A stretch of DNA of 64,000 bases from NCBI GenBank assembly GCA_024137785.1, contig JAHRHZ010000274.1:11164210-11228209 (forward strand), in the 5' to 3' direction. Origin of the DNA: Ginglymostoma cirratum (Eukaryota). The stretch's first letter is position 1, and each line of letters starts with the position of its first letter. Below the pieces are notes generated by a model. The model did not search any database. It saw only the letters and a list, made by a program, of their open reading frames with translations, and was not told the DNA's origin. Position numbers and translations under genes: made by a program. Positions 8,711 to 62,528 of this stretch are shown piece after piece.

Positions 8711-8880
8711 GTGCAGATCTCTGAAAGAGAAAACAGAGTTAATGTTTCGGGTCCGATCACCCTTCCTCAGGGCAACTCCAGTTCTGAGGAAGGGTCACCG
8801 GATTCGAAAAGTTAACTGTTTCCTCTTTCACAAATGCTGCCAGACCTGCTGAGCTTTTCCAGCAACTTTATGTTTGTTCC
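8711..8880. mobile_element. Fold-back mini-element with two head-to-head hammerhead motifs (8741-8770 minus; 8779-8818 plus)
   Basis: ...ttaatgtttcgggtccgatcacccttcctcag / cagttctgaggaagggtcaccggattcgaaaagttaactg...; plus copy has 5-bp stem I CAGUU/AACUG. Confidence 0.75.
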
Positions 8881-8889
8881 AAGTTTTGG

Positions 8890-9840
8890 ATTCCTTGGTT
8901 ATTCACCCTATCCACGCCTTTCATGATTTTATAAGCCTCTGTTAAGGTCACCCCTCAGCCTCCAATGCTCCAGGGGAAAGAGAAGTAGTCCCAGCCTATC
9001 CAGCCTCTCCCTATAGCTCAAACCCGCCAATGTCAGCAATATCCTTGTAAACCTTTTCTGAACCCTTTCAAGTCTGAAATCTTTCCTATTGCAGAATTGC
9101 AGAGACCAGAATTGAATACATTATTCTGAAAGTGGCCTCATCAAAGTCCTATATAGCCACAACATGACATCTCGATTCCTGTACTGAATGCACTGACCAA
9201 TGGAGGCAAGCATGCTAAATGCTTTCACACCACCCTGTCCACCTGCAACTCCACTTTCAAGGAAATATGCAATTGCACCCCGAGGCCTCTGTTTGGCTGC
9301 ACTGCCCAGGGCCTTACCATTAACCAAACAAGCCCATTGGCCCATCTGATCAAAATCCTGTTGTACTCAGATAATCTTCTTCACTGCCCAATAACACCAA
9401 TTCTGGTGTCATCTGCAAACTTACTAACCATACTTCCTATATACACATACAAATCATTTATATAAATGACAGAAAACAGCAGATCCAGCACCGATCCTTG
9501 CAGTACACCAGTGGTCACAGTCTGAAAACAATCCTCTACCACCATCCTGTCTCCCACCTTCAAGCAATGACGTTCCACACACAAAGCTATGTTGACTGTC
9601 CCTAATCAATCTTTGCCTTTCCAAATGCATATACATCCTGTCCCTCAGAATCCCCTACAACTTACCCATCACTGATGTCATGCTCACTCATCTATAATTC
9701 CCTGGCTTTTCCTTACAAACTTTCTCAAGCAATGGCACCAGATCAGCAACCCTCCAGTCATCTGACACCTCGTTCGTGGTTGTTGATGATACAAATTTCT
9801 CAGCAAGGGGCCCAGCAACCTCTTTCCTAGCTACCCACAA
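8890..9840 (-). mobile_element. CR1 LINE RT fragment
   Basis: ORF track: VTTGVLQGSVLDLLFSVIYINDL...VSKFADDTRIG; HLERQRLIRDSQHSFV; YRTLMRP. Confidence 0.85.
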
Positions 9841-10109
9841 ATTATAACTAAACTCATTTTTGGATGACCTGTTACAATATCTTCTGACATCAAATGGTGG
9901 TCTATTGAAAGGTGTGTAAGTCAGTCACTGGAGCCAATTCCACTGCATTACAATATACTTCAACTTCATTACCTCGCTGTCTTGCTCTACGCCCCTTTAG
10001 CAAACAGACTTAATAAAACACATTAGCCCAGAATTCACAGCCTTTTGAGGAACAGGATCTACTGCACTGTGGAAATAAATTCCAATTTCACTGCTGAAAG
10101 GGTGAGTCA

Positions 10110-10705
10110 GACCACAAAATATCGGAGCACAATTAGGCCATTTGGCCCATTAAGTCCACACTGTTTTTCGATCATGGCTGATACGTTTCTTAACCCTATT
10201 CTCCTGCTTTCTCCCTGTAATCCCTGATCTCCTCATTAAATCAAGAATCAATCATCGCTATCTTAAAGACACCCAATGACTTGGCAATTGTGGCAATGAA
10301 TTCCATAGATTCACCACCCACTATCTAATGAAATTCTTCAACATTTCAGTTCAAATGGTTCACCAGCTCACTCAGAGGCTGTGCCCTCAGTTCCTTTCCT
10401 ACTCGTGGAAAGATCTTTTCCACGTTCACTCCATCCAGGCCTCCTAGCTTTGTTTCAGTGAGATTCCCCCCCCCCACATCCTTCTAAACTCCAAAAAGTA
10501 CAGACAGAGCTGTCAAAGGGTCCTCAAATGACAAGACCTTCAACTTCAGAATCATTGGAAACCACTTCTGGACATCCTTTAAGGCTAGCGCATCCATCCT
10601 TTCGATACACTACCCAAAACTGCTCACACTATTCCAAATGCAGTCTGGTCAGACCCTTATAAAGCCTCAGCAATACATTTCTTCTTGTATATTCCATAGT
10701 TTAAG
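10110..10705 (-). mobile_element. CR1 LINE 3' fragment
   Basis: Tail ggagcacaattaggccatttggccc...atcatggctgat; RT C-terminal remnant. Confidence 0.75.
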
Positions 10706-11399
10706 ATTGTGCCATCTTGTCAGGAATCCCCTACTGTCAGAGACTCATAGTTCGACAGCATCTAACTCAGAATCTGTATACCTGCCTCAAACAGTTATTC
10801 TTGGTGATTCCATCTGTTTACTATCTTTGCATAGTCCTATCCTCATTCAACATCAAGAATGTATACATACTAAAGCTGTCTACGAGTAATGCAATACCAT
10901 GAAATATAATCTGTATTATCATACACTTTCTACATAACTTGTTCAACTGTGAAATAAGTGATCCTTTATTTTTGGTATTGCTCATTGAATACATTACTGG
11001 TCAACTCCTCAGCTCTACTCCATACGCAAAGTACTTGAACAAGCCATACTGGCTCTCAGTTCAACATCTCAGATTACAATAATTTGCAGAGGTCAGCCAT
11101 CACCCTGGCAAAGATTTCTGTTTATTTTTAAATTAGCGTCCATGCTAAGGGATTAGGAACTGAACATTAAAGTTACTTTTACACAGGCCATAAATAGATG
11201 TCCTATTTTGTCCTGGCACATATTCACTACTTGGTAGATAACAAGTGGTTCTATTTGCTCTTTTTACTGAAACTGCTTTCCTAGATAAATGAATTTGGTC
11301 AACCATCTCTCTGAAGACAACCACAGTTCACCTAAACTGATGAAATCTGGGAATGACTTGACCTTTAATACAAAAAAATGCCCATCCTATGATCATATT

Positions 11400-15825: not shown

Positions 15826-15914
15826 CAAAAACAGAAGTTGCTGGAAAAGCCCAGCAGGCCTGGCAGCATCTGAAGAAAAGAATCAGTTAACGTTTCGGGT
15901 CCAGTAACCCTTCG
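15826..15914 (-). mobile_element. Hammerhead-family mini-element truncated within the ribozyme core
   Basis: Reverse complement gaagggttactggacccgaaacgttaactg...atgctgccaggcctgctgggcttttccagcaacttctg. Confidence 0.7.
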
Positions 15915-17243
15915 TTGCTTATTGTGTTTATTTCCTACCTCTGTCTTTTATTTAGTAGTTCGGAATGCTTTCAGTGTCTTCTACTGTGAAGGCTGGCAAA
16001 AGGTATTTATTCAACTCCCCTGCCATTTCCTGATTCTCTATTATTATTTCATTAACCTCATTTTCTAAGGGGCCTATGTTCACTTTAAATTAATAAAAAA
16101 GGAGAGAAACCTAAAGAAACACTTACTGCCTGTTTTGATATTACTTGCTAGTTTATCCTCAAAGCTTATTTTTCCACTCGTTAGTTTAGGTTCATCTTTT
16201 GCTCGTTTTTAAAACTTTCCCAATCAGGTTTACTACTATTCTTTGTCACAATGTATGCTTTTTCTTTCAATCTGGTATTATCTTTAACTTCCCTGGATAA
16301 CCATTGCTGACTTATGCCCTTCCCAGAGTGCTCAACTGGACAAATCTTGGTTGAATCAAGAACTATTTTCTTACATGTTTACCCTTGTTCATTAATGATC
16401 TCTTTGGCTAAAGACCTTTCCCAATCCACTCCAGCCAAAGCTGTCCCCATTTCTTTGCAACTACTTATTTAAACTTAGCACTGTTGTTTCCAACCCAGGT
16501 TTCTCCCCCTCAAGTCAAAAGTTAAATTCTACCAGGTTATGGTTGCGGTTTCCTCTGGGACTTTTCACACAGAATTTATTAAACCTGCCTCATTATACAT
16601 CAGCAAATTCGATGGACTCACAACACTGTTCAATGAAACTTCCCAAACACACTAAATTATTCTTCATGGCAACCTTTGCCAATTTGATTTTCCAAATCTA
16701 TGTGTGAAGATTTAAGTCATCCGTGATGTATGTTCTTTCTTTTGTGTCTTCCCCCATTAATTCACAATATATTCTTTGCCCTACACTGCAGCTATTGTTT
16801 GGGGGCCGACAGACGACTCCGGTGTTTCCGCCCCTTGTTATTTCTTACCCCCACTCATATAAACTCTACATTTTCCAATCTAAGATCAATTCTTGTTGTA
16901 TTTATTCTTTTAGTAACAAAGCTACCTCATTATCCTTTCCCAGCCATGTGATCCTTTGATAAGTCATTTACCCAAGTATTTCTGTTCCTACCTTAGATAT
17001 ACCTGGAACCGTGTCTCTGCAATAGCTATTAAGATTACACCTATAACTCCTTTTTGTGCCATTAATTCATTTATTGTACTCCAAATACTACATGTATTTA
17101 AGTAAAAAGCCATCAATTTTACCTTGTTACACCTGCTTTGACCTGACTTGTTGCTTTTTTCCTACGTTTGTACACTTCTCTCTTCCTGTCCAAACTCTGG
17201 GTATCATTACCTAAATAGCTATACTGAAGAGCTACCAAATTCT

Positions 17244-17546
17244 GGGCAGCACGGTGGCACAGTGATTAGCACTGCTGCCTCACAGCGCCAGGCACCTGGC
17301 TTCAATTCCACCCTTGGGTGACTGTCTGTGTGGAGTTTGCACATTCTCCCTGTGTCTGCATGGGTTTCCTCCCACAATCCAAAGATGTGCAGGCTACGTG
17401 GACTGGCCATGCTAAATTGCCTGTAGTGTTCAGGGATGTGTAGATTAGGTGGCTTATAGGGGAATGGGTCTGGGTGGGATCCTCTGAGGGTCAGTGTGGA
17501 CTTATTGGCCCGAAGGGCCTGCTTCCACACTGTAGGGATTCTATGA
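17244..17546 (+). mobile_element. HE1-type SINE (tRNA head, CR1/HER1-like tail)
   Basis: A-box ggtggcacagtga, B-box-like gcttcaattcc, gtctgtgtggagtttgcacattctccc core, tail ccacactgtagggattctat. Confidence 0.85.
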
Positions 17547-19410
17547 TCCCTTTGCTTTGTAAGGCAACCTTTCCCATCTCCCAAATCCTCCATCCCTTTA
17601 GTTTAAAACCATCTCTGCAGCCCTAGTTATTTGATTTGCCAGGACACTGATCCCAACATGGTTCAAATGAAGGCCATCTCAACGAACAACTGCCTTCTAC
17701 CAGAACTGGTGCCAGTGCCCCAAGAAATGATATTCAGTTCCCTGACAAAACTTGTTACGCATTTAACTCCTTGACTTTGTTTACCCTATTCAGTTTGCTA
17801 TTTGTTCAGATAGCATTCCTGAGATTCCATTGAGGTTCAGCTTTTCAATTTAGTTCCTAAACGCTCAAGTTCTTTCAGGAGCATCTCCTTTCTCTCTGAT
17901 CAATATTATTGGTAGGTGTGAGCTATGAGAAGGATGGATTCCCTCAATCCCACTCTTAAGTTCCTCTGAAATATTACTTAATGCAGGCAGACAACACTCC
18001 CACTGGGACTGATTCATGGCTACAGAGAAAGATTCCTATCTCCCTAATTGCCTCGTCACCTACCATCAAAACACTCCTATCTTTTCCACCAACCGGAATA
18101 GCTGTCTGTACTTCAGCACTGTGGCCAATGTGCCTAGCCTCCATGCAGTCTGCGCTTTCTTCCAAACAGCTGTCAAGAACATCACAGCTGTTGGGTGGTT
18201 GCAGGGTCTGAAGCTCCTTGAATGCTACCCCTGGGGCCCCAAAACTGCCCACCTGCAGTCACACCCTCCTCTCACTGATCACAGGCCAAATTTAAATTAG
18301 CTATTCCGAGGGGGTGTGACTGCCTCCTGGAGCAAAGTGTCCATTTATCTGTTCTTATCTGTTGTACCTCAGGCTCCAGCTCCTCAACTTGGATCCAAAG
18401 TTCCTCCAGCTACAAGACACTTACTACAGATATGTTTGCTCTTGATCCTGGTGTCCAGCAGCTCCCACATGCCGTAGTGGCAACACAGCAGCATCCTACT
18501 ACCACTGCAATATTTCACTGAATTTATTCATTAATTGCTCTGGTATTCCTGTTCTTGACACTTGTAAGTCTTCTGCTCTTCATACCTGATTGTAATTATC
18601 TTTTTGTTTTCATACAAGTGTCAATTTTATTCTGAACCAGCTCTTTTTAAGGCGAAGAGAAAAAAATATGACTAGACATCTAAACGTAGAGTAAAAACTT
18701 TACTTGTAATTTAAATATGATAAATATTCACCGATTCTATTTACCTGTCAGCTACTTTCCTTGCACTGCTGTCAGGTCCAAATTCATGTCATCACTCCAC
18801 CATGGTCTCACTTCAGGTAGGGTCTCATTTCATGCTTTTTACCTTCTCCCACTCAGCTCTCATTCAAAAAATATACTATTTTGATTCTTAGGAACACAAT
18901 ATACCTTAACCAGATATTCATTAACTGACCAGCTCCTTCTCCTGTAGCACAGCAAGAATTCTCAGAGGGTGAAAACAGTCAGACAAATACAACCAAATAC
19001 CTCTTTGCCTTCCCTGCTTTAATTCTGTGCAGTGCTCAACTCTAGCATCCTGTTTTAAGTTTTACACAACAGATAAGCTTCACTTATTTAGCGACATATA
19101 AATTATTTCTAATCAACCTGTTCGATTATGTTATGACATATCTCCAGAACAGGGGAACTCAGATCTTCTGGTCTAGAGTTAGGAATGCAACCACTGTGTC
19201 ACAAGATCCCCCCTTAATATACTAATACAAAAGGCCTGAGTCAGTTAATGAGGATCCAGTTTCAGCTGGTCATTGATTAGGCTGCTCTCTTTCACTAAAA
19301 CCCTTGAAAAAAATCTGGTTAAAGTTGGCAATCATACAGAATTTCAAATGTAGCTTTCAGTCTATTGTCAACTACAACCTACAATCAAAACATATACTTT
19401 CTTATCCAAT

Positions 19411-19539
19411 CTGAGGAAGGGTCACCGGACCTGAAATGTTAACTGTTTTCTCCTCCACAGATGCTGCCAGACCTGCTGAGCTTTTCCAGCAACTTTGTTT
19501 CTGTTCCCTGTTTATAGCATCCGCAGTTCTTTTGATTTT
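19411..19539 (+). mobile_element. Solo hammerhead-cored mini-retroelement with 16-bp TSD
   Basis: Starts exactly at CTGAGGA. TSD tactttcttatccaat (19395-19410) / tacttttttatccaat (19540-19555). Confidence 0.8.
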
Positions 19540-20499
19540 TACTTTTTTATCCAATGATGCATTCATCTCTTCAACAAAAAAAAATACTTTGCAAGTAGTT
19601 TTGTTCTTAGCATTTCAATTTAATTGAATATGAACAGACAGCTTGAATCTTCAACCACCGCCAATTTGGGATATCGAACAGCCTCACGACTTATGGAAAT
19701 ACATCCCAGAATGTTATGCAGGGACATAAGCATATTACTGAACAAAAGAACAAACCAGCGTGATGAAAAAAAATTTGGACGGTCATCAAGAATTGAAGAA
19801 AGAACAGCAAGATGGAGAATGGGAGAAGTTCAGAGAAGAATTCCACAGACCAGGTGATTGAAGGAGCAACAAATGCTCAGGCGAACAAGTTCTGCTAAAA
19901 AAAATTAAGGCACCATGTTGGGAGATAGTTTAAAAGACAGGGTGGGAGAGTCACAGATGGATTTTTAACAACATACATAAATATTTTGGCTTTTACATTA
20001 TGAAGTGCCTTCATGCACTTCATAGAGTGTCACAAAGCAAAGTATAGCTCTGAGCTATACAAGGACATATTGGGGCAAATCATTAAAAAAATTGGTCAGA
20101 TATAGATTTTACACTTTTCTCTTTCAGACGTAGAACCAGGTTACAAGGTTGAATGGTTCAGGCAGATAATTCCAGAATTTAGGGCCCAGGCCTCTGGCAG
20201 CATAGGCAGCATATGTCACTTCAAAATACCAGTGTTTTCTGGCTAACATTTCTATCTCAGGCCTGTTTATGTGCTTCAGTGATGCTCAGTGCATACTGGA
20301 GGAACAACACCTCATCTTCCACCTAAATACCTTATAGCCCTCAGGACTCAACATGGTACTTAACAATTTTAGAATGTGAACAACACAGTCATTACCCACC
20401 CCCACAACCCCAAGACCTTTTTTGTACAACTAGCCCGTTTTGAACTATTTTCACTTTTCATTAGCACCTGCATAGCATTTTTCTCCCTCTTGGCTTATC

Positions 20500-21480: not shown

Positions 21481-21630
21481 CAAAGGTTTTTTTGAGGAAA
21501 AGGTGAACACAGGATTAGACAGAGGGATACTACTTTAAAAAAAAACTTTTTAACAGTATCACTTAATGCTAAGTACAAGTAGGGGAATTGGATGATCAGT
21601 AGCTCAGTGGGAATAGAATTTAAAAAGACT

Positions 21631-21937
21631 GGGCGGCACGGTGGCTCAGTGGTTAGCACTGCTGCCTCACAGCGCCAGGGACGCAGGTTCGATTCCCCCT
21701 CGGACAACTGTCTGTGTGGAGTTTGCACGTTCTCCCCGTGTCTGCGTGGGTTTCCTCTGGGTGCTCCGGTTTCCTCCCACAGTCCAAAAATGCACAGGCT
21801 AGGCGGATTGGCCGTGCTAAATTGCAAAGATGTGTAGATTAGGTAGGTTTGGGGAATGGGTCTGGGTGGGACGTTCTGAGGGTTGGTGTGGACTTGTTGG
21901 GCCAAAGGGCCTGTTTCCACACCATAGCGATCCTATG
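21631..21937 (+). mobile_element. HE1-type SINE
   Basis: gggcggcacggtggctcagtgg (A box), ggttcgattcc (B box), CR1-like tail. Confidence 0.9.
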
Positions 21938-29582: not shown

Positions 29583-29893
29583 GGGTGGCATGGTGGCTCA
29601 GTGGTTAGCACTGCAGCCTCACAGCGCCAGGGACCCGGGTTCGATTCCAGCCTCACGTGACTGTCTGTGTGGAGTTTGTACATTCTCCCCGTGTCTGCGT
29701 GGGTTTCCTCCGGGTGCTCCGGTTTCCTCCCACAGCCCAAAGATGTGCAGGCTAGGTGGATTGGCCATGCTAAATTGCCCATAGTGTTCAGGGGTGTGTG
29801 GGTTATAGGGGGATGGGTCTGGGTGGGATGTTCCAAGGGTCGGTGTGGACTTGTTGGGCCGAAGGGCCTGCTTCCACACTGTAGGAATTCTAA
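29583..29893 (+). mobile_element. HE1-type SINE
   Basis: A box tggtggctcagtgg, B box ggttcgattcc, tail gcttccacactgtaggaattcta. Confidence 0.9.
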
Positions 29894-31639: not shown

Positions 31640-31667
31640 GACGTTTCGGATCTAGACCCTTCTTCAG
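31640..31667 (-). ncRNA. Minimal hammerhead ribozyme motif, intact core
   Basis: rc CUGAAGA-A-GGGU(CUAG)AUCC-GAAA-CG-UC. Confidence 0.65.
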
Positions 31668-41960: not shown

Positions 41961-42860
41961 CAGAGAGAAGAGCACACAGACAGACTTTATAGGCAGAGAG
42001 ATCAAGGGCTGAGAGATCAAAAGATCATACATGGAGAGATTCGATAATCGCTTCCACTTAATTTGAGGTGGGGGTGGGGTGGGGAGGGGATGGATTTGCT
42101 TAGAAGTCCAACAGATCTATTTGATGTGCACTGTGGAATGTCAGTATCAGTGTTACCTATATGAACAACATATTTTGTGTAAAAAATTCTGTGTTAAAAA
42201 GCCTAAAGAACTGCAAGTGATAGAAATCTGAAACAAAAACAGAAATTGCTAGAAAATCTCAGCATGTCTGGCAGCATCTGTGTTGAGAACAGATAGCACT
42301 GTGGAACAATATTCACCACACAGTCGTGTTCTCAAGAGCAACTTGTGCGCACCCCCCCACCACCCGCCAAAATAAATGTTGCCTAGAACACTCACCCCGT
42401 TACCAAGTGTTATTTTCAACCCCTATAAATAGCTTCAGAGAAAAAGCACACCTTTCAAATCACCTGCACCACATTCTCATGAACATCAAATTATCACTAT
42501 CAACGCGCTTAAAACAGATTATGCCATAGAAATCTGACTTAGTTTTCTGGATGTCTAACACCATAAGCTAGTCATCCCCAGTCCTATTACACTTGGAAAT
42601 GTGGTGGACATATCATTTATAATGTTTGTTCGTTCAGCAATGATAGACTAACTTGTTGCTATAGGACCCTTCTGGTACAAAAAAAAACTTTACATAATTG
42701 CAAAAAACATTATTTTAAAAACACACAACTCTGCAGATTAGAAGTGCGCATCTCCTGAAACACTGACATTCTAATTAACTCTCATTTTCCCAATAACTTG
42801 GTGTAAATGTCAGTTACTCCCTACTTTCTGCATATAAACTGATGTTTTCCCAGGCACCAT

Positions 42861-42940
42861 CAGTTCTGAGGAAGGGTCACCGGACTCGAAACGTTAACTC
42901 TGTTTTTACCTTCACAGATGCTGTCAGACCTGCTGAGCTC
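42861..42940 (+). ncRNA. Hammerhead-cored mini-element, intact core at 42866-42895
   Basis: CAGUU-CUGAGGA-A-GGGUC(ACCG)GACUC-GAAA-CG-UU-AACU. Confidence 0.7.
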
Positions 42941-44469
42941 TGCCTATTTTCAGGTTTTCACATATAACTACAATGTTATTGTCTCCTTTCTTTGTACGTG
43001 CAGTGTGCTGCACATTGACACGTGGGTCATACAGCAATTTCTATTTTGTTTCTCAAGTACAGTTTATCACAACCGATGCTAGCACAACTTCAACTGTAAT
43101 CATAGTAACATCAACTACAACAATATTTAATTGCACTCATTTAGATGCCTACGTTTCCCACATCATACTGTGATCCAAGAATGACAGCCCTTGACATCAA
43201 GGCCTCATTTGACCAAATGTGGTATGAAGGAGCCCTAGCAAAACTAGCATTTTTTGGGAATCAGGGGCAATCTCTCCACTAATTGGAGTCATACCTGGCA
43301 CACAAGAAGATGGTTGTGGTTGCTGGAAGTCAATGATCTCAGCTCCAATACACGTCTGGAGTTTCTCAGGATATAGTGTCCTAGGCCCAAACATCATCAG
43401 CAGCTTCAATGACTTTCCCTCCATCATAAGGTCAAAAGTGGGGATGTTCACCAATGACTGCACATGTTCAGCATCATTCGTGACTCCTCAGATGCTGAAG
43501 CAGTCAATGTTCAAATGTAACAAGATCTGGACAATATCCAAGCTTAGGCTGACATGGCGCAAGTAACATGCATGCTACACAAATGCCAATTGAATTGCAG
43601 AGTATAGGTATCACTAGCATTTTATTACTCGATATTCACATCTTTGACGATGTGATAGAGGGTCATCCTGAGCAGCTGCATGTCAGATTGCTCCAGTACC
43701 TTCAGAATTCTGTTTGGGCAGAAGTCCTCTAAGTCCTGAAGAATAAGGAACTGAGATATATGCCCACTAGAAAATGGTGCGTAACATGAATGAGAGGTGA
43801 TGGTATCATGATGCAACAACTGCCTTTTTACTTCCGTAGTCACTGTCTCATGAACTGGTACCAAGAAGCTTTAGAAAAATAATACTGTGCACGTATTACA
43901 TGCCACAACCATGCTGATGTTAAAGCATTCTCTGCTCCTTCCAAGTGTTTTGTATTGATAAGGATGGTGTCAAGCTTCTCAACTGTGCTATATCTGAAAC
44001 CAACTTGGGGTTGCACTCTTGATGTGCCTTGTAGACCAAGCTTCTTTAGGAATTAGGGATAACCTAGACAGACACTGAATACCTTGCCCCTTACTTGATT
44101 TAGTAGCCATAACATTTATCTATATTGTCCAGGTGGGTTTCTTGTCAATACTGAAAGCTATCACAGCTCCACTCACATTTACAAACTTCAATCCTTTAAA
44201 TAGTCAGGAAAAAAGGAATCAAAGAAAAATCAAAAGCCTTCTTTTCCAAGAAATTCAGATAAAAGGATGAGCAATGACTAAATTTGATCCTTTTGTCCCC
44301 ACTGATTAGACCGCTTTAAAATTGATCCCTGGTTTCTTACTTGCTAATTATGTCTTTTTACCATATGGAGTGAGATACTTACCCTGCTTGCATCAGTACC
44401 TGCAATGTGACGTAGTCACGTCGTATACAAGACTGAGCATTAAAAGAGCGAGCAAAATCTTCGATCTGG

Positions 44470-44665
44470 ATAAAAATCGAAAGAACTGCAGATACGGTAA
44501 ATCAGGAGCAAAAATACAAGTTGCTGGAAAAGTTCAGCAGGTCTGGCAGCATCTGTGAAGAAAGTCAAAATCAGAGTGAACATTTCAGGCCTGGTGACCC
44601 TTCCTCAGAATGTTCTGCTGCCAAACCTGCTGAGCTCTTCCAGCAACTTCTGTTTTTGTACCTTC
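44470..44665. mobile_element. Fold-back hammerhead-family element with 8-bp TSD
   Basis: TSD cgatctgg at 44462-44469 and 44666-44673; inverted arms gttgctggaaaagttcagcaggtctggcagca / ctgccaaacctgctgagctcttccagcaac; degenerate core on the minus strand at about 44578-44608. Confidence 0.75.
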
Positions 44666-45029
44666 CGATCTGGGTTGGAAATCAAGATCAAACTGAAAAT
44701 TATCCAATTCCCTTTGATGCAGTTTTTAAAGCAAACTTCTGAGCTGAAGCAGAGCACAAGAATTCGGAGTAGATTGGCGCTGAAAAGACAGAGGAGGCTT
44801 AAGATGGGCTTGTGTGGGGGCACGACCACATTGGCTGTGTGGGTGAACCAGGCTGGTGAGTCAAGGGGTTCAGTGATATAATTAGCCAGGAGTTAAGTAG
44901 GTTTAAATTTCTGCGACAATTCCTAACTAACTAGTCACATAACCGCCAGAAGTCCCAAAGAAATTGACAGCGGATCAAGGACAGGGGCTAAGTAAAATTA
45001 CCTTAAATAAATCATCAATAATGGGGGGA

Positions 45030-47040
45030 CTAATGGAACTGAACAGTGACAAATTCCCAGAATTTGATGGTTTCTATGTAGGGGTATTGAAAGGGGGTAG
45101 CAAAACACATTGAAAGATTAGGATTAGGGCACTGGCAGAGTTCCTGGGTTCAGGAACTCATGAAACTCCATTCTTTAAGAGTGAGTGGGAAACCAGGGAA
45201 TTACAGACCAGTTAACCTGACATCAGTTGTTGGAATCTATAATCAAGGTTATGGTAACTGATCATGTTGAAACATTTCAGTTAATCAGAGGCAATCAGCA
45301 AAGACTTACGAAGGGTAAGTCTTCGCATCCGCTGTACCCGTTGTGGCCTCCTCTACATCGGCAAAACGAAGCGGAGGCTTGGGGACCGCTTTGCAGAACA
45401 CCCGCGCTCAGTTCGCAACAAACAACTGCACCTCCCAGTCGCGAACCATTTCAACTCCCCCTCCCATTCCTCAGACGACATGTCCATCCTGGGCCTCCTG
45501 CAATGCCACAGTGATGCCACCCGAAGGCTGCAGGAACAGCAAATCATATTCAGCCTGGGAACCCTGCAGCCCAATGGCATCAATGTGGTTTTCACAAGCT
45601 TCAAAATCTCCCCTCCCCCAACCGCATCCCAAAACCAGCCCAGCTCATCTCCACCTCCCTAACCTGTTTTGCCTCTCACCTATCCCTTCCTCCCACCTCA
45701 AGCCCCACCCTCATCTCCTATCTACTAACATCATCCCGCCCCCTTGACCTGTCCGTCCTCCCTGGACTGACCTATCTCCTCCCTACCCCCCCTACCTACA
45801 CTCACCTTTACTGGCTCCATCCCCGCCTCGTCGACTTGTCTGCCTCCTCTCCACCTATCCTCTCCTCTACCCATCCTCTATCCGCCTCCCCCTCTCTCCC
45901 TATTTATTTCAGAACCCTCTTCCCCTCCCCCATTTCTGATGAAGGGTCTCGGCCCGAAACGCCAAGTTTTCCTGCTCCTATGATGCTGCTTGACCTGCTG
46001 TGTTCATCCAGCCCCACGCTTGTTATCTTGGAATAATGGGTAATTACTCACATTGGCGGGACATGACTAGTAATGTCCTGCAAGGACCTCTGTTGGATCT
46101 CAATTATTCACAATATTAATAAGTTGGATAATAGCTTAAAAAGTCAAATGTCCAAATTTGCTAATGACAAAAATTGGGCAGCATTGTAGACAGTGTTGAT
46201 GACGACAAAATTACAACAGGATACCATTTGATTAGGTAAATGGGCAATGGGTAAAAGCTGCGGCAAATGGATTTTAATGTAAGCATGAGCGAGGTTATCC
46301 ATTTCAGAATGAAGAAGGATAGAGGAGGGTATTTTTAAGAAGGCACCAAGTTAACTACAGTGGATGACCTGCAAGATTTGGGGGGTGGGGTGGGGTGGGG
46401 TCCGGTTCAGGTGCATAGCTCTTTAAAATGTCATGAACAGGTACAGGAAATATTCAAGACAGAACGCTAGTCCTCATAAGGATGCAGATGTTATGCTGCA
46501 ATTATACAAAACCCTTCTTACAGTACTAAGAGCAGATCTGGACACCACACTTTAGGAAGGATGCTTTGGCCCTGGAGGGAGCACAGTGCAGGTCCATAAG
46601 GAGTCCTGGATTTTAGGGGTTAATTTGAGGAGAGATTAGAGAAATTAGGCCTTTATTCTCTGGAATTTAAAAGACTAAGGGGTGATCCAATTGAGATCTT
46701 CATATAGTAACAGGGTAAGATAGTTTACCTTTAGTACCCTACTTCCACTGATTAAAGATTCTAGAACCAACTGACATAAGAATTAGGGCCAGACCATTCA
46801 GAAGAAATATTAGAAGTCACTGTTACATACAAAGGGTAGTGGAGATTTGGAATTCTTCCTGAAATGGCTGTCGATACTAATTCAAATTTTAAATTTAAAT
46901 CTGAGATAGGCGCATTTTTGTTAAGGGCATCAAAGGATACCTTAGGGCAGGCATATGGACTTAGGCCAAAATCAGCCATGATCTTATTGAATTGCAGAGC
47001 TGGCTGAAGGAGGTAAATGGCCTACTCCTGTTCCTAAGTG
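45030..47040 (+). mobile_element. Decayed CR1 LINE interrupted by a PLE
   Basis: PGNYRPVNLTSV, LIRGNQQ, MSKFANDK motifs; 3' tail ggcctactcctgttccta. Confidence 0.8.
45322..46030 (+). mobile_element. 5'-truncated Penelope-like element (GIY-YIG C-terminal half and 3' end)
   Basis: Open frame RIRCTRCGLLYIGKTKRRLGDRFAEH...QPNGINV to 45662; hammerhead at 45936-45963 with mutated site (GAAACGCC). Confidence 0.9.
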
Positions 47041-47417
47041 TGTTCCAACAAGCCAAGGTTTCAACTCTGTGTATACCAGGTAACGGCCCAATTTTCAACT
47101 TTGCAGGCAATTACCATGGAATCAGCTGCATCGGGCTTCCACACGGCCCTGACCTGCAACTCCTGTCTGCAATGCGGAAACAACCAACTGCCCAACAGAA
47201 GGGCTGGACAACTGTATTACTCAAGTAGACACAAAAAAACACCCAGCCGATTTACCAGCAAAGTATACAATGGGTTAAGTGTGATATCAACAACACAAAA
47301 CAATTTTCAGTCATGAGATTAACAATGTAAAAACAAACAAAACCCTTTGGGAAGGTGAAGAAAAATATTTATCCCTGTGCTTGCATCCAGCACTCGGATT
47401 AACACTTCTTTCATCAA

Positions 47418-47614
47418 ACACAAAAACAGAAACTGTTGTGAAGCTCAGCAGGTCTGGCAGTATCTGTGGGAAGAAAGCATCACTGAAGAGTCAGTGAATT
47501 GATAACATGAACTCTGCTTTCTACCAACAGATGCTGACAGACCTGCTAAGTTTCACCAGCAATTTCCATTTTTGTTTCAGGTCTCCAGCATCCATCGTTC
47601 CTTGTTTTATTTGA
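47418..47614. mobile_element. Fold-back hammerhead-family element with 12-bp TSD
   Basis: TSD ttctttcatcaa (47406-47417) / ttcttccatcaa (47615-47626); inverted arms; degenerate core. Confidence 0.7.
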
Positions 47615-49636
47615 TTCTTCCATCAATTTGTTTGCTTTCATTTTTAGGTCCACACATTTGAATTTCTGTTTTTCCTTCTCCTGCTAATGCAGTGTTTTAA
47701 CATTTCCCAAATTTGATACATTAAAAAAAAGGGAGGAAAGCTCTAAGTATCAATTTCACTAGCAGCCAAGCTAGCAGAAAGTGCAAAGGAGATCACATTC
47801 CCTAAGACAGAGTTTAAACATTAGATTTTGTTATGCAGTCTCTTCCTAAGAAAATAAACCTTTTATTAAAATGTCCTGGAGTCATCCTTAGTGTCAGTAT
47901 TAAATTACCTACTGCATTTTGTTTTAAAAAGTGCTCCTCCATTTAAAGAATTTGGAATTACTTAATGCACTAATTTTTATCACCTTGGACTAAACAAGTT
48001 TTCCTTGTATTCTTCAACTTGCAGAACGTCACCTATTTTTCATCCTTACTAAATGCTGCTTAAAGGTTAGTCCATATTTTCACTACCTGGCAGCTCATTT
48101 GCTGCAGGACTATCCCCACTAGTCTCATGCATTTCATCTTACACCAGTCCCAATTCAACCAGAACATCATATACCATTCCACATCTCAACACCTTAGCAC
48201 CAATCCGTTAGCTTTCCAACCAGTGCAATGATTTTAAAGCACAAATCCTCCTCTTCAAATCTCTTCAGTTAAATGCTCCATTTCAGGTTGACAATTTCAT
48301 ACATCCTTAAGCCAACATTTTTTACTACTCCATTACGCAGTACATGCAGCTATCTAACTTCTCCAATACAATGGAAAAACCTTCAGCCACCACTATCCTT
48401 CCATTTTTGGAATTCTTGTCATTGACTTACATAACTCTTTGTCTTCAAAAAGAAAACCACTTTATACTTTGCCTTTTATTATTTCTTCAGTCACATCTCC
48501 AAATTAGCTCATATTTCCTACACTCAGATCTATTCAAATGGAACATGTCCAACATAACTGAGTTATTGCTGTCAAACTCTTAAGTCAGCATGGCTTAAAT
48601 AAAGTCTTGTCATGCTATCATCAATGATCCTCCTGAATGCTCCATTCCAAGTTCTTAGAAAAATTCATAAACCATTGATGGATAAAACAAAAATTATGAC
48701 ACAAAGGATTATTTCTACGTGATATGATCAGACTACCTGTTTACATGTTTTTAAGCTACCCTCAAGTCCAATACTAAATATGTATTTAAATATGTAAAAT
48801 CAAGATGTGCATTTTAACAGGTATTAAGCTCAACCACAATGATGTGACGATTTAGTTAGCAAATGTCTGTTGGGCTTCTTTTCCTTCCTCAAACTGATTT
48901 TAGTCTCATGTCATAATGTAGTTTAATTTCATGGAAGTCAATTTATTCTTTTCAAGTGAATAATGGTACGTTAGTCACATACTTAAATTGACAGATAAAT
49001 AGTTGTGGAATTTTTGTCTTCAGCTACAGTAAAGAGCGTTCACTTGTACAAATTTACACTATCTAAATTGTTTAAATCTATAGGTTTCAGTCAACACCAA
49101 CATTCAAAATAGTCAAAAATCTTACTTCTGAATCAGAATCTTATTTTTCCTATGCAAGGTTAAATATTACGTCAGTCACCTGTAGGCCAAAACAAGTGAA
49201 ATTGCCTGAAATTTTACATGTAATTGGCATAGCTCCAAAGTTAAGTACTAGTCAGGAATGAAACATATCTAGAACCAGCACATTTTGAACTCTCGTACTT
49301 ACTACCCAAGTCAAAGCTGATTTTATTCAAAACATTTGGCCCTTACATGGGCTTGTATCACAATATAACTTTGCTGCACATTTTTATGCAATCATCCAAG
49401 AGAAAATTCCATACTCAAATCCACAGGCTGAATTTACAAGTCACAAATGCAAGATTCTGACATTCCTTTCTTAACCAAAATGAAATAAACAATCACTTGT
49501 ATATACGTTGAAATAAATGTTTCTAAAAGTTGAGAAATACGTTAAAAAATTATATACAGAGGGTAAGTATGTTTGTTTTCCATCTTTATACATTTTTGTA
49601 CCCTTAGGAGATATTTTTCAGAATAGGTTGGAGTCA

Positions 49637-54097: not shown

Positions 54098-54234
54098 TGT
54101 TTTTTTCTGAAGAAGGGTCCAGACCTGAAACATCAGCTTTCCTGCTCCTCTGATGCTGCCCGGCCTGCTGTGTTCATCTAGCTCTACACCTTGTTATCTC
54201 AGACTCCAGCATCGGCAGTTCCTACTATCTCTCT
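54098..54234 (+). mobile_element. Solo PLE 3' end starting at the hammerhead, with 11-bp TSD
   Basis: TSD tgcagtaaaaa at 54087-54097 and 54235-54245; core CTGAAGA...GAAACATC at 54107-54134. Confidence 0.85.
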
Positions 54235-56315: not shown

Positions 56316-58362
56316 CTGAAATAATTTATATTGGTTCATAGTGCATGTAATCCAATGAGATCCAAAATGTATTTTCTATTTATCAAAATGACAGTTGAAA
56401 CCAAACAAAAAAGCCAATAAACTTTTAATAGAAGTGGACAAATACCGATCAGAAATTATTAAATGTGGTTTGTAAAACAGAGTTAAAGAAAGTGGAAGAA
56501 AAATACAACATGATGTGCCAAAGAGTGGGGTCTGTAGCTTCTTACTCAGTTCAATGCACATTCACGGCATTAGCTGGAAGACGGACACTAAGTATTTCCT
56601 TTTCTTTCAGGGTGGGAGGGGAATTCAGATGACTATAGTTGTGCGGGAACAAAGCTATGTCCACGTCTAGTCACATTAACAGAAACCCAAAAGCAAGCTG
56701 GATGCACACACTCTTCTTCAAACAAACTGTATTGTGCATCAAGAAACTGAAAGGGAAGAAATGTAAACTTTAACCTAGAAAAAGGAAATTTTGAATAGAT
56801 TTGTTTTTAATTATTGCCACAAATCCACAGAGTCTAGAGTCACAAAAAAGATGTTGAGAATATGGATCCTATTTAAAATTGAGTAATGATGCAAGGAATG
56901 GGCTTTACAATCTCAAATATTTATATAAACTGAAATATATGTACATAATATTACATTCACAATGAGCGTCTGGTAATGTTATCAGTTGTGAGTTGAAGGA
57001 AGGCATTACTCCTCACACTTTCAAATAACTATTGTGATCATTGATCTTGACTTCAGTCTACTTTCTTCAAGTAATTCTTTCTGATTTAGGTAGTCTGATT
57101 TATTAGACCTCTTCACGATGGCATGCTAAAGAGCTTTGTTTTTAATTTCTATAACTGCTGTACAAAGATCTTCATTTGATAGCAGTCTCACTTAGTGGAT
57201 GCTCTAGAATGTGATGCCCTTTTGGCACTGGTACATCTAATAACCCTGGTATGGCAATACTGCAGTATTGTAGGCACCATCAGTATCAGGAACACATAGG
57301 TCTTCTTGTATTTTCAAATTTTCAAAAATTAGGCTAGAACATTGGAGAATAACATTTACAAGTCTTGTTTGAATTAATTGATTTAATGGCTAAATTTAAA
57401 GTCTTAGGTGCTATCATGATAAGTTTAGTAAGACCAAGTGGATCATAAACCAAAACCTACAGTTTTCCTTCGAAAAACCTAAACCACTTATGTCCAAATG
57501 AAAAAAAAATTGCCAAGTCTTTAAACCTTTACTATTTTAAGTGACATAACAAGAAATTGATCTCCTGCTACAACAAATCTCTAAACATCTTGAAAAAGCC
57601 TTCACCTAATTTTTTTTAAAAAGTCTATTTCAGCATCTCAAAAACATAATGTAATGACCGGTTTACAGAAAGAATAGTGAAACCGCTATCAAAACAAAAA
57701 AAAAAAGGCACAGTTCACAACACAAAAAATACATCCCAAAGAATTAAAGTGCAAATTACAAAATATCAGCTAAAAATATACATTAATTTAACTTCAAGCA
57801 GAAGAAAATTAACTTGACAAGCAAAATAATTAAACATTAACTTAATCAGTTAGATTTAATTTTATTCCCAAAACAATTTAGAAATGACGAACAAAATTAA
57901 AATGGAACTGATTACATTTTAAAATATAACTACCTTAAATTAAAACAAAAAGAAACGAGCTAGGTAGCTGTAAACTGATTGCACTGAAAGCCCTAGGCCT
58001 TCCCTAGGCCTTTCTTAGACTTGTTACCAATCCCCTCGGCTGCTGGAGGAGGGGTAACACTCAGTTGCAAACACCAAGACGTGATGAGATGAAATGAAAC
58101 GAGATGTCAAAAAAATCATTTTCCTTAGTGAAAACAGATGAGAACCACCCTGGATTTATTTATTAGAGGGAGTGCGTGTTAAATCCCAAACTGGAAAACG
58201 AAACCAGAGCGATGGTGAGGAAAAAGAGGTGGGGGCGGTGATAGGTGGACTAAAATCATGGGGATTACTAGCAACAAACAAAACTAAAGATGCAATATAA
58301 CATGAAGGAATCAATGAAGGCATTCCCCCCTCCTCCTCCTTTACAATTCTCTCCACACCTTA

Positions 58363-58551
<189 letters not shown>

Positions 58552-58840
58552 TCACAGAAAGGCGAGCATGAAGGGAAGAGGGGAAGGGGAGGCGGAAGAA
58601 ATTCCAAAAAAAAACTCCACAAAAGACCCCCGGGTTATTTTTTTTTCACTGTGGAGACATAATCCTCCTCCGACAAATATTTTTCCCTCTCAAACTCTTG
58701 ACCACCTCCTCCTTTCCCTTGATATTTTTTTCTTCAGGTTTTTTTTAAAAATCGTCTTTTCTTCTAATGATCTACATATATATAAATAAAAAAGCAAAAC
58801 AATAATAAAATGTCTTTCCCCCCCTCCTCCTCAGCGGACT

Positions 58841-58882
58841 CTCTCTCTCACACACACACACACACATACATACATACATACA
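58841..58882. repeat. (CT)n(CA)n(TACA)n compound microsatellite in the 5' UTR/promoter region
   Basis: ctctctctcacacacacacacacacatacatacatacataca seen directly. Confidence 0.9.
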
Positions 58883-59270
58883 CCCCCACCCGCTCGAACC
58901 AACTTGACGGCCGGAAGCGAAGGCTGATGGTTTTGGGTGGGGGGGGGGAGGTGGATGAGAGAAGGAGAGGTGAGTGCGCAGGCGCGTCGATTGGCACTGA
59001 GCGGGAATGTGGGCGGAGGGGGTGAAGGCCGTGAGTAAAAGAAGGGAAGGGAAAGTGAGCGAGCGCCTGAGTCTGCGGAGGGCGGGGTAAACCGGATTTG
59101 ACCGACGTCGCGTATCGGCCAATAGCGCCGAGGAATCGTGCGCGCCTACTGACCAATCGGGAGGGGGCAGGCGGGATGTCCGCCGCGCGAGCCCTGACGG
59201 TTGCTGTCTAGGATATGCGCCTCGGGTGGAGGTGAGTTCCTGCCCGTTCGCGCAGGTGAGGTTTGTTGGA
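58880..59270. promoter_or_regulatory. CpG-island promoter of the Gq-class gene
   Basis: Sharp local rise in GC and CpG in an otherwise CpG-depleted window. ETS-like CCGGAAG 58911-58917, NRF1-like TGCGCAGGCGCG 58975-58986, ATTGG 58990-58994, CCAAT 59119-59123 and 59153-59157, GC boxes 59011-59016 and 59080-59087. Lies about 400-700 bp upstream of the ATG. Confidence 0.8.
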
Positions 59271-60689
59271 GGAGGTTGCTGGGGAAAGCGTCTCAGAGTT
59301 CTGGTAGTACTTTGGTAGCCTTTCGACCTGGGATCAAGTCCCAGCCTATTCCCCAGGTGTGTTATAATATAAAACAGAACGGCCAATGCTGGAAATCTGA
59401 AACAAAGGTAGAAATTGCTGGCGAAGTCCAACAATTCTTAGCAGTCACGAGATCTGGAATGTGAAGTCTCTTTCTCTCTCCACACGTGCTAAGTTTTTTT
59501 TTGTCTGTGTAATAACGTATCTGGTCTAGTGGATGTAAGAGAAAAAAGGTCTATGCTGCAGCCGACAATGTAACTTGAGTCGTTACTGTATTTTAATGTC
59601 CCAACGTCTTGTCAATGTGGTGCGTCTGTGCTGGTTAGTATTTGTTTGCCAGCCTGAAGAGTGTTGTTTGATGAGATTATCCCTGAGCAATACTGCTCTT
59701 GATTCACCTGTAACATGTTGACCAGTAATTGCTGCCCATGTCTCCTATAAATTGCCCTGAGTAAAGGTAAAATCACCAGAGACCTTCCAGACCAGAGGGC
59801 TGCTCTGTCTCTAGACAGAGATGACTGGTAATGGTTTAACCTGAAGAACACACCACACCTCAGGTGAGAAGGAGACGCTGTTATAATAGCCTCAGCTGAT
59901 GTGAAAATTGAACCCATGCTGCTGGCATTCCTCCATGTCACAAACCAGCCACCCAGCATTTGTCGGAATCTGTTAAATGTCATGGAGTTTTTGCAGCACA
60001 GAAAGTGGCCCTTCAGTCCATCATGTCCATACCAGTCATTGAACATCCATCTATTCCAATCACACTTTCTAGCATTGACTCAAGCCATCTATGTTATGGT
60101 GTTTCAAGTGTTCATCTACTGCCTGCTGCTTACCTTCAACCTCAGCCCCTGATAATTGAACCATCTACAATGGGGATAAATTTCTCCCTGAATCTGGTCT
60201 ATGCCCTTCAGAATTTCATACACATACACGTTTTGTACACATCCTGAGCAACGGTATCTCAACTGTTGGACTCATCTGTAATATGCCTATCAATAATTCT
60301 CTTTCACAACTCGTAGTCATATCTTGTATTATTTGCTCTGTGTAGCAATCAATGAGATGGCATACTTTGGACCTCAATGGAATTTAATTTGTTTTTCGTG
60401 GATTGTGCATAGATGTCAACCAGTGTTGCTGTCCATGAGTTAACAACACTTCTCTTGTCATCAGTGACTTTTGATCAGAGAACTCCCAACAAAGACAATG
60501 CTACTTTCCCTCTGGAATCTTCGCAATCTTTTTAAGCCAACCTTCAACTAAATGGATTGTGCTGAGAGCACTGCTGTAGACATTATACCACACTCATTCA
60601 CTATCCTGAGCAGCACACTTCCCCAATCGGGGTCTCCTTGTTGACTCAGTTTTCTGGAATTTTCTTGCAGTTCAAACTGCTCCAATTAA

Positions 60690-60855
60690 ATACAATAAAA
60701 GAAATTGCTGGAAAATCAGTTATGAAGAAGAGTCACTGGATCCAAAATGTTAACTCTGATTTCTCTTCACAGATGCTGCCAGACTTGCTGAGAATTTCCA
60801 GAAATTTCTGTTTTTGTTTCAGATTTCCAGCATCTGTGGTTCTTTTAGTTTTTTA
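60690..60855. mobile_element. Fold-back hammerhead-family element with perfect 12-bp TSD
   Basis: TSD tgctccaattaa at 60678-60689 and 60856-60867; short inverted left arm; degenerate core atgaagaagagtcactggatccaaaatgttaac. Confidence 0.75.
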
Positions 60856-61476
60856 TGCTCCAATTAAGTGTTTGCTTCTTTTAATTCTCTGATCACATGT
60901 GATTTTCCCTTCAGCTGCTGTAAACTTTCCGGCAGTTAGTGAGACATTTATGGACAACTTTTCAAGCCCTTCATATTGGCTGTGAGCAGCATGCTACTAA
61001 TTAGGATTGCTTAGTAGTCACTCAGTCTGCAAGCTTGTGTCAAAAGGAGAGCAAGCCTTTCGTAACACACTGCTTGCTGAAAATGTGCTATTTCTGTTTC
61101 ACTTCTAACTCACATAGGAGAACTTTAAAAGGGGCATTCGTGCTGTCATCATCATTACAAGCCCATAGATGCTCCTAAACAATGACTCTTCCCACCGTCA
61201 TTCCTACAAAATCTTAATGCATTGAGTTGCTAACTTTCAACGTATTGTTCACTTTATACATAAGTTTCTGAAATGCACTGTTTGTTTTGTTGAGATTTCC
61301 CCTTGATTGTAATTGATATGTCACGGGCCTATCTTCTTTCTTATCTGCTCATCATTTTTTCTTATTTCACATTAACAGCGTTCCTTCTGCACTCATCTTG
61401 TATTAACCCATTTCCATGCATCCCATTTTAACAAAATTAACTATCTACACAGTGATCATAATCAGGCACATCTGTT

Positions 61477-61579
61477 AGAAGAAATAACAAGGTGTAGAGC
61501 TGGATGAACACAGCAGGCCAAGCAGCATCATAGGAGCAGGAAAGCTTGATGTTTCGGGCCTAGACCCTTCTTCAGAAAT
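61477..61579 (-). mobile_element. Solo PLE 3' end starting at the hammerhead, with perfect 12-bp TSD
   Basis: TSD ggcacatctgtt at 61465-61476 and 61580-61591; rc core CUGAAGA-A-GGGU(CUAG)GCCC-GAAA-CA-UC at 61548-61575. Confidence 0.85.
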
Positions 61580-62429
61580 GGCACATCTGTTTTCAGCTTT
61601 CTCATGGTGTATTCAATCCAGACCACCCTGTTGAAACTTCCATTCCAGTAGCTACTTCCCCAACTATAACTGAACATACAGCACATCCCAATTGCTTCTT
61701 TCCATACCATTGCCCGCAGTCCTAAACATATTGTCGGTTTGCATTATGTACAAATTCTCCAAAGTATGCCTCTATTTCCTCCATATTCTAGAATATTTTG
61801 CTGACTTGTATACTGGTGAGATTGAAAGTATGAAGTATTTATCAGCAAGCATAATTCAGACTTCCCTCTGATTTAACCATTCCTCCCATTGCCACTCCTA
61901 AATTTCCACTATTAGTTTGAGTTACTTGTTTGATTCAAGTTCAACATAGACTTTCAAAAACTGTTATAAATATCAAACCTCAACGTCACAGCTTAGGAGG
62001 CTTGTTAGTTCAGTTGATAGATGCCTAGTGTCTAGTTTGAAATAACACCAAGAAAATGAGATTGGATCCCTGGTCTGGAGGAGTTTGATTTGGAATCTGC
62101 CCCCTTACTCAGCAACATTGTAAAATTGTGGCATATGTAGTGGCTCAGTAAACCTAAATAATCAGGTATGCTACCTGGAGGCAAGTAGTCATGTTATGGA
62201 CGTTATGTTACTTCTAAGGGTGTTGCATTCAATATCATACAGTACCAATCTGTGGCATTTCCTAGCCAGTTCATTTCAGTTACGTTAGAGTCAGCGGGCA
62301 ATGTCATTTTTGCCATGCTCTTGCCTGTGATTGAAATGACCTTGCATATCATTTATAACTTTCCTGTCCTTTCCAGATTTTGATAAAACTATGCAGTGCT
62401 TATTAAATGCATTTCATACCCATATTTAG

Positions 62430-62528
62430 AATATTTGAAACAAAAACAGAAATTGTCAAACTGAACAGGTCTGGCAGCATCTGTGGGAAGAAAACAGAGT
62501 TAAGACCGGTGGCCCTTCATCAGAACTG
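62430..62528 (-). mobile_element. Hammerhead-family mini-element with the GAAA segment deleted
   Basis: rc cagttCTGATGAagggccaccggtc-ttaactctg...agatgctgccagacctg. Confidence 0.6.

Follow-up and report, generated by a model that had tools for sequence, protein, structure and literature searches.

The short hammerhead-bearing repeats dispersed through the stretch of Ginglymostoma cirratum DNA analysed here (64,000 nucleotides, hereafter the window) constitute the terminal unit of a Penelope-like element (PLE) in the same genome, 3,150 bp long and encoding an RT and a GIY-YIG endonuclease. The object itself is ordinary, i.e., it consists of the ends of a PLE, and its layout is already published. 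The repeats correspond to the opening ~100 or ~135 bases of the full-length element and probably arose as dead-end cDNAs that began at two internal starts and ran off at the 5' end of the mRNA. As likely run-off products of an RT that started close to the front of the element's RNA, these short copies (stubs) probably do not form a mobile family of their own.

All nine copies named in the initial annotation were found in the window and are homologous, and a tenth, at 42195..42282 on the minus strand, was missing from that list. The copies are as follows, with positions in the unit numbered from the C of CUGAGGA (+1):

8708..8880, both strands: fold-back with two hammerhead cores, no TSD found; arms +1..+63 inverted (8708-8770, minus) and -4..+99 direct (8779-8880, plus)
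15826..15913, minus: solo stub +6..+95 without the 5' part of the core, no TSD found
19395..19555, plus: solo stub 0..+136 (19410-19544), TSD of 16 bp with 1 mismatch at 19395 and 19540
20287..20437, plus: fragment of the ORF end and 3'UTR of the parent element, from -349
42195..42282, minus: stub +48..+133
42817..42939, plus: copy -48..+74 retaining parent 3'UTR
44462..44673, both strands: fold-back, exact TSD of 8 bp; arms -1..+134 (44470-44610, minus) and +54..+100 (44616-44663, plus)
47406..47626, both strands: fold-back with decayed core, TSD of 12 bp with 1 mismatch; arms +36..+96 (47420-47479, minus) and +25..+136 (47504-47612, plus)
59358..59515, both strands: old, decayed, probable fold-back with no recognisable core, TSD of 10 bp with 1 mismatch; arm +78..+125 (59373-59421, minus), direct arm weak
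60678..60867, both strands: fold-back with decayed core, exact TSD of 12 bp; arms +74..+93 (60697-60715, a short inverted stub) and -6..+132 (60715-60853, plus)
62439..62529, minus: solo stub -5..+97 with a partly deleted core and no TSD found
45285..46041, plus: sister Penelope-like family B, for comparison, with a GIY-YIG-like fragment (E 6e-4, under the Pfam cut-off), 3'UTR and hammerhead unit
6217-6610, 31578-32433, 32551-33037, 40399-40887, 54104-54230 and 61481-61581: further copies of family B

The two cores reported for the 8711 copy are present, as are all five of the proposed TSDs (19395/19540, 44462/44666, 47406/47615, 59358/59506 and 60678/60856), and no TSD was found at copies 8711, 15826, 42861 and 62430. 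The core is near-intact only at 8711, 19411, 42861 and 44470. The copy at 15826 has lost its 5' side, those at 60690, 62430 and 47418 have decayed cores, and no core can be recognised at 59368. The copy at 42817..42939 has TATAAA at 42833-42838 and an initiator-like TCAGTT ahead of its hammerhead core.

The parent element both begins (5') and ends (3') with the unit. Nine of the 30 top copies run on into a common 3'UTR, and the long copies, which are broken, translate as RT and then GIY-YIG, with the protein showing 45-50% identity to RVT_1 + GIY-YIG proteins; partial tandems have a period of 3,150 bp, and the long ORF begins near +172. An intact ORF was not seen in the three copies translated, and Pfam returned no match in three ORF fragments of the parent itself. 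The search for longer copies joined to an RT/GIY-YIG ORF, which had been suggested as a check, thus found them, and the earlier view that no coding partner is visible is wrong for the genome and partly wrong for the window, where pieces of the parent 3'UTR and ORF end lie at 42817-42860 and 20287-20437. No relative of the RT was found in viral contigs.

The traits of EN+ PLEs are all present here, i.e., an RT + GIY-YIG linked to the unit, partial tandems of the pLTR, inverted 5' copies and a tail at one end, and the pLTR of the parent contains the minimal hammerhead. One copy (L051) has a CX4CxxC linker between RT and EN, and a CX2-5CxxC linker in this position is the criterion for Neptune, shared with Nematis (PMC8557442), which makes it likely, on the sequence, that the parent belongs to the Neptune clade. 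The published accounts of Neptune/Nematis-type EN+ PLEs describe partial tandems, inverted pLTRs and, at one end, a tail of 30-40 bp (Craig et al. 2021, PMC8557442; Arkhipova et al. 2013, PMC3846280), and the present element resembles them in its RT followed by GIY-YIG, CX4CxxC motif, partial tandems, inverted 5' copy, TSDs, solo pLTRs and a tail of ~37 bp on one arm. It differs from what those accounts describe in that most insertions here are stubs that end at one fixed 5' wall.

The abundance and the ends of the stubs were established in an unselected survey of 673 kb of unmasked DNA, which yielded 82 insertions (101 arms), or ~1 short-class insertion per 8 kb. The minimal-hammerhead motif gave 48 matches in these 673 kb versus 0 in each of five Markov-1 controls, far in excess of chance; the identification as a minimal type I hammerhead is supported. 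Stem I had been given as 5 bp, but it mostly has 4 (AGUU/AACU), with a fifth C-G pair in 2 of 58 cores. At its third pair, family A has G-C, a variant of family B has U-G, and 17 of the 58 cores have U.C. Stem II mostly retains its pairs, with one-sided changes plus three substitutions of A-U for G-C. An Rfam search matched no hammerhead family, single-strand MFE folds of the monomer formed no hammerhead and had non-significant z-scores, and ARAGORN found no tRNA genes.

The core corresponds to the minimal hammerheads (min-HHRs) described for metazoan PLEs in its CUGANGA/GAAA motifs, extra base between 9 and 10.1, G10.1-C11.1 pair, palindromic 15.2/16.2, lack of helix III and 4-bp helix I, and differs from that description in a helix II of 5 bp and in H17 being U in family A (PMC4209133). 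Cleavage and circularisation are proposed in the same source, and the ends measured here bear no trace of them. At the predicted cut, +31, there is no peak of 5' ends (7 of the 101 arms from the 673 kb, versus 12 and 9 in the adjoining bins), and only 1 of 30 copies chosen on their 3' 81 nt alone begins there; the ribozyme cut was therefore rejected as the 5' boundary.

The 5' ends stop instead at ~-3, on an initiator-like motif ~30 nt downstream of a TATA box. Of the 101 arms, 40 begin within -7..+3, the two 11-nt bins immediately upstream contain 1 and 3, and 10 pass -30. The same wall appears in 20 of the 30 copies chosen on their 3' 81 nt alone (-10..+4); among 56 young copies extending to +1/+2, 47 stop at -6..+1 and the remaining 9 have 3'UTR. 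In family B, 38 of 105 arms stop at the wall (mode -2), with 15 short copies at -6..+1. The 3' ends of family A fall at two positions, ~+96 (38 of 101 arms at +93..101) and ~+133 (29 of 101 at +129..143). The short copies are thus a discrete class, as had been claimed, and not a smooth truncation series, and ordinary truncation also occurs, to judge from the 47 of 101 unselected arms (about half) that begin downstream of +3. Among 20 ORF-bearing copies, 4 have the wall joined to mid-ORF, two of them via A-rich filler, and the cDNA therefore seems to have ended at the wall and jumped. A splice acceptor as the source of the wall was rejected, given that the copies have no common upstream exon and that the wall of family B lacks an AG.

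The position of the wall may reflect either the start of transcription or a later event. In family A the TATA box begins at -32, and in family B a TATA-like TATTTA begins at -34, a spacing from the wall that suits a Pol II start in both families. Among 13 hammerheads beside distant Penelope RTs, some of them closely related to each other, 8 have TATA at -35..-45, versus 0.28 expected, and 5 have none within -46..-31, a window that was set after seeing the data. A TATA box with an Inr-like motif has already been noted in the pLTR of Adineta Pen2a (PMC8557442; PMC3846280), and the Penelope of D. virilis has an internal promoter without TATA (PMC2377424). On the other hand, the parent and the run-off could be the same and the RNA end at ~-3 arise post-transcriptionally, through exonuclease trimming that is blocked by the hammerhead fold or by a bound protein, or the RT could pause on a longer RNA. 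In both families the wall falls at the 5' edge of stem I, which favours this reading, as does the lack of a clear signal of an extra cap-derived G (4 of 7 copies starting at -3). We consider it unlikely, given the TATA spacing in the two families, the TATA ahead of the hammerhead in distant relatives, and the expectation that an RT stalled by the fold would halt at its 3' edge (~+35) and not at its 5' edge.

The fold-backs carry the same two 3' ends. Of 53 young short copies, 36 are flanked by TSDs with at least 9 matches, compared with 0% of swapped-flank controls, in agreement with the proposal that each TSD-flanked copy is a single event. TSDs accompany 27 of 30 fold-backs but 9-13 of 23 solo copies. 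In 25 of those 27 fold-backs, the TSD lies no more than 4 nt from the outer end of the inverted arm. One +96 arm is joined to one +133 arm in 12 of 14 classifiable unselected fold-backs (P=0.004), two short-type arms are paired in the other 2, and of 26 arms partnered with a +133 arm, only 1 extends to the long site (P=5e-5). A MITE or DNA transposon was rejected on the ground that the two arms are unequal parts of the end of a retroelement.

How head-to-head inverted copies form was left open in the published account (PMC3846280), which attributes such junctions to antisense self-priming and, together with a later one (PMC8557442), ascribes solo pLTRs to recombination or deletion. The fold-backs could likewise have arisen by self-priming, i.e., the extension of a cDNA hairpin or the use of an antisense template, as for the Adineta Penelope, instead of from two target strands, and the short palindromes that are frequent at the inner junctions, together with that published proposal (PMC3846280), speak for it. 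The probability of this route is nevertheless small, given that the second arm ends at the +96 site which solo and long copies use as their 3' end and adjoins the TSD, that the inner ends of the arms are frequently unequal and split by filler, and that TSDs are commoner in fold-backs than in solos.

Under the preferred run-off reading, the TATA box in the 3'UTR of an upstream copy would direct a Pol II start at ~-3, a position suggested by the motifs, and the hammerhead would therefore lie at the extreme 5' end of the mRNA. The GIY-YIG endonuclease would make staggered nicks ~10-16 bp apart, and RT priming at the 5' copy of the unit would yield a stub, while priming at its 3' copy would yield the rarer, variably truncated long copies. 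If both nicked strands prime, one per start site, two run-off cDNAs would be joined head to head, and this twin priming would produce a fold-back with its tails outward and a clean TSD. The template would be mostly uncleaved RNA.

Several of these steps have counterparts in the Poseidon of Anolis (PAc), for which the in vitro study describes two internal RT starts that define the "tail" (Frangieh et al. 2024, PMC11167929), nicking and extension of both target strands, a predicted dimer, and uncleaved RNA as the main template, as is proposed here. These starts, adjacent and ~100-135 nt past the hammerhead, match the two 3' ends observed here. PAc belongs to another clade, and its ORF begins inside the hammerhead, whereas the long ORF here begins near +172; the part of the PAc paper available to us contains no discussion of stubs at the RNA 5' end or of start-site pairing in fold-backs.

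No obvious mechanism of pLTR regeneration besides tandem formation has been seen (PMC2377424). A broader scheme, which we put forward tentatively as less probable than the run-off reading itself, is that PLE copying resembles that of retroviruses, with a dimeric RT, priming on both strands, a run-off ("strong-stop") cDNA and its transfer to the 3' unit. Two priming sites would lie near the mRNA 5' end, the cDNA would end at the TATA-driven start just 5' of the hammerhead, and transfer to the identical unit at the RNA 3' end would allow the 3'UTR and ORF to be copied, regenerating the pseudo-LTR promoter. If this were true, roughly half a million stubs would be failed transfers, and the spacing of TATA, start and hammerhead would be conserved across distant animals. 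The ends of the stubs would make the poorly understood copying mechanism of PLEs testable, and three results, namely the fixed wall below the TATA box, the joining of +96 to +133 arms and the wall-to-mid-ORF jumps, lead to specific predictions that could be tested in the PAc in vitro system.

The initial annotation saw in these repeats a non-coding, retrozyme- or SINE-like unit mobilised by a Penelope RT. Mobilisation by such an RT is supported; the separate unit is not, being the terminus of a coding PLE in the same genome. An independent family, with its own transcription and using the Penelope RT in trans, would account for the discrete size class, the TSDs, the excess of short over long copies and the very large number of copies (82 insertions across 673 kb). 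Short copies also differ from long ones in 2 of 12 variable columns (p=0.02 and p<0.001), a comparison that is confounded by query choice but may point to a partly separate source. We nonetheless regard such a family as very improbable. The extent of the unit is identical to the parent terminus, short and ORF-linked copies are equidistant within and between classes (0.063/0.064/0.060), variants are shared at 10 of the 12 sites (in 100-bp units, which offer little resolution), and none of the pairs among 46 short copies has a common junction flank. The hallmark of SINEs is an internal Pol III promoter with A and B boxes; no B box was found within 1 mismatch of the consensus, and A-like matches only at 1 mismatch. 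The TATA box is absent from most stubs, which would not be expected to propagate alone.

Retrozymes, as described, form head-to-tail arrays of units that give rise to circles, measure ~150-450 bp and carry canonical ribozymes (PMC7229834), and animal retrozymes have been proposed to derive from pLTRs (bioRxiv 10.64898/2026.07.22.740005), which favours an independent family. The present units share with metazoan non-LTR retrozymes a type I hammerhead, a non-coding nature and a relation to pLTRs (PMC7229834; bioRxiv 10.64898/2026.07.22.740005), but they occur singly or head to head, and cleavage sites do not mark their boundaries. None of the 82 insertions is a head-to-tail array of intact units, 2 of the 82 have same-direction partial units without complete cores, and the unit ends do not fit ribozyme-cut monomers. 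Min-HHRs are reported mostly as dispersed single motifs, ascribed to truncated PLEs, and also as opposite-strand pairs (Cervera and de la Pena 2014, PMC4209133), and many of the dispersed single "minimal hammerheads" or "monomer retrozymes" of animal genomes may be run-off stubs and not independent elements.

The nine short hammerhead-bearing copies named in the window by the initial annotation were all found, together with a tenth, unlisted one, and every one of the five target site duplications (TSDs) claimed for them was verified, while none was found at the remaining four copies when it was looked for. The hammerhead core attributed to these elements is near-intact in four of the nine, and not in the other five. 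Positions are numbered here from the C of the CUGAGGA core (+1, the preceding base being 0), with the predicted cut between +30 and +31. The unselected sample was composed of the window and 75 hand-picked 10-kb stretches, many of which adjoin one another, from a genome of 4.36 Gb, giving a total of 814 kb, of which 17% is N, i.e., 673 kb unmasked. In this unmasked DNA, a minimal-hammerhead descriptor retrieved 48 matches versus 0 in each of five controls, which bears out the motif, and the min-HHR features published in PMC4209133 are present in the unit. Stem covariation is weak, and the motif was not detected in an Rfam search. Further, older hammerhead-bearing subfamilies with other stem I and stem II pairs were also observed (L054:838, L154:6421 and 8746, L066:8291).

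In nine of an initial set of 30 close copies, the sequence carries on upstream of the unit into a shared region, the translation of which yields a reverse transcriptase (RT) and GIY-YIG joined by a CX4CxxC linker, and the copy at window 42817–42939 retains 48 nt of the parent 3'UTR. The parent protein has 45–50% identity to its best matches, whose precomputed domains include RVT_1, with GIY-YIG in some, although three of these gave scores close to the Pfam cut-offs when rescanned. A linker of this type is given in PMC8557442 as a criterion for Neptune that is shared with Nematis, and it suggests that the parent belongs to one of these two clades. In partial tandems among 20 ORF-bearing copies, picked on a mid-ORF stretch, the unit continues into the ORF 5' region with a period of 3,150 bp; the element thus begins with the unit at its 5' end and finishes with it at its 3' end. 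All three copies for which a full translation was made are broken. Between +40 and +175 (L074, L076, L084, L085), an upstream ORF of ~30 codons opens near +52, immediately downstream of a pyrimidine tract that terminates in CAG. It shares its reading frame with the long ORF, the ATG of which (near +172) is preceded by a second acceptor-like tract; given this frame and these two tracts, a 5' intron or uORF control is suggested.

Many of the short copies share a fixed 5' end, the wall, at about -3. Among the 101 unselected arms, 40 begin at -7..+3, one at -18..-8, three at -29..-19 and 10 beyond -30, with the remaining 47 scattered downstream and no peak at the predicted ribozyme cut at +31 (seven arms versus 12 and nine in the adjoining bins). 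When copies were picked solely on the 3' 81 nt (n=30), 20 began at -10..+4, two were long, six began downstream, and two were masked, and among 58 young copies reaching +1/+2, 47 end at -6..+1, nine keep the 3'UTR, and two are masked. In family B, a sister Penelope-like family, the wall lies at the same place in 38/105 arms, and 30 selected loci comprise 12 long copies, 15 short ones with the 5' end at -6..+1, and three masked or clipped.

From its sequence context, we infer that the wall would be the 5' end of the mRNA. The upstream motif is TATAAA from -32 in family A, and TATTTA from -34 in family B; both lie 29–31 nt upstream of the A at -3, whose surroundings resemble an initiator, as read against the TATA and initiator consensus motifs. 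A same-strand hammerhead is present on 13 of the 80 metagenome contigs that encode a related RT (two matches are on the opposite strand), and eight of these 13, some of which are related to each other, have a TATA at -35..-45, a window set after seeing the data, versus 0.28 expected from shuffles. A TATA box and Inr are noted for the Adineta pseudo-LTR (pLTR) in PMC3846280, although the D. virilis Penelope promoter is described as TATA-less in PMC2377424, which weakens the generality of a wall set by TATA. Four of the 20 ORF-bearing copies show the wall fused directly with a mid-ORF position (+1091, +1133, +1424, +1544), which implies that the cDNA ended at the wall and then jumped to another template position. 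Two of these junctions (L073 and L083, oriented positions about 3501–3517 and 3454–3464) contain A-rich untemplated filler, as if the RT had jumped onto an oligoadenylated RNA fragment. A cap-derived G at the wall is not evident in young copies.

The proposal of a separate retrozyme-like unit was not sustained. The mean distance is 0.063 among the 46 short copies and 0.060 among the 27 long ones, with 0.064 for comparisons across the two classes, and short and long copies do not differ at 10 of 12 variable sites (they do at two). No pair of the 46 short copies has a junction flank in common, no B box was found in the unit, and no arrays occur among the 82 unselected insertions; on these grounds, the units differ from retrozymes as defined in PMC7229834 and bioRxiv 10.64898/2026.07.22.740005.

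These 82 insertions (101 arms) correspond to a density of one every 8.2 kb; provided that the sample is representative, this would extrapolate to roughly 5x10^5 across the genome. Their 3' ends fall at +93..101 in 38 arms, at +129..143 in 29, and elsewhere in 34, and these two clusters agree with the pair of internal RT start sites, and with the tail, reported in vitro for PAc, the Poseidon of Anolis, in PMC11167929. Within about +50..+125, the complementary blocks GATGCTG and CAGCATC flank the +96 site in both families, a candidate RT-binding stem-loop; MFE z-scores were not significant.

Head-to-head insertions, or fold-backs, account for 17/82 of the unselected sample. Three of these have a clipped arm and were left out. 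In the other 14, one arm is short-type and the other long-type in 12 cases, both are short-type in two, and both are long-type in none (P=0.004 under independent choice; L022, a three-piece locus among the unselected fold-backs, is ambiguous). Selection of young loci with the long end (n=68) gave 32 fold-backs, 30 of them unmasked, in which the partner arm ends at +91..109 in 25, is clipped in four, and reaches +127 in one (P=5e-5), and the partner arm of family B fold-backs is at the long end in 0/8. TSDs of 10–18 bp flank 27/30 fold-backs versus 9/23 solos (13/23 with a looser gap). Self-priming, as proposed in PMC3846280, explains these data less well, given that it predicts neither the fixed end of the second arm nor the TSD contrast, and priming from both nicked strands explains them best.

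Previous publications already describe partial tandems, inverted and solo pLTRs, the tail on one side and dispersed min-HHRs (PMC3846280, PMC4209133, PMC8557442, PMC8969392, PMC6765202). In a literature search that covered mainly papers available without subscription, nothing was found that unites Penelope-like elements, twin priming and the pseudo-LTR, and neither strong-stop run-off nor shark PLE stubs were found in the papers within scope.

The window also contains the following repeats, the first three of which we take to be HE1 of sharks and rays:

17237–17543: tRNA-derived SINE-like repeat
21624–21935: tRNA-derived SINE-like repeat
29576–29892: tRNA-derived SINE-like repeat
62878–63186: degenerate tandem repeat, period 38–40 bp, at least 6 copies

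A perfect inverted repeat of 145 bp (100% complementary; 49637–49781 and 51151–51295) encloses 1,369 bp and has no obvious TSD; it may stem from a recent inversion/duplication or from the assembly. The stretch 58001–60000 is GC-rich (48% versus ~39% in its surroundings) and includes a (GT)n run; it is possibly a host CpG-island promoter next to the 59368 copy.
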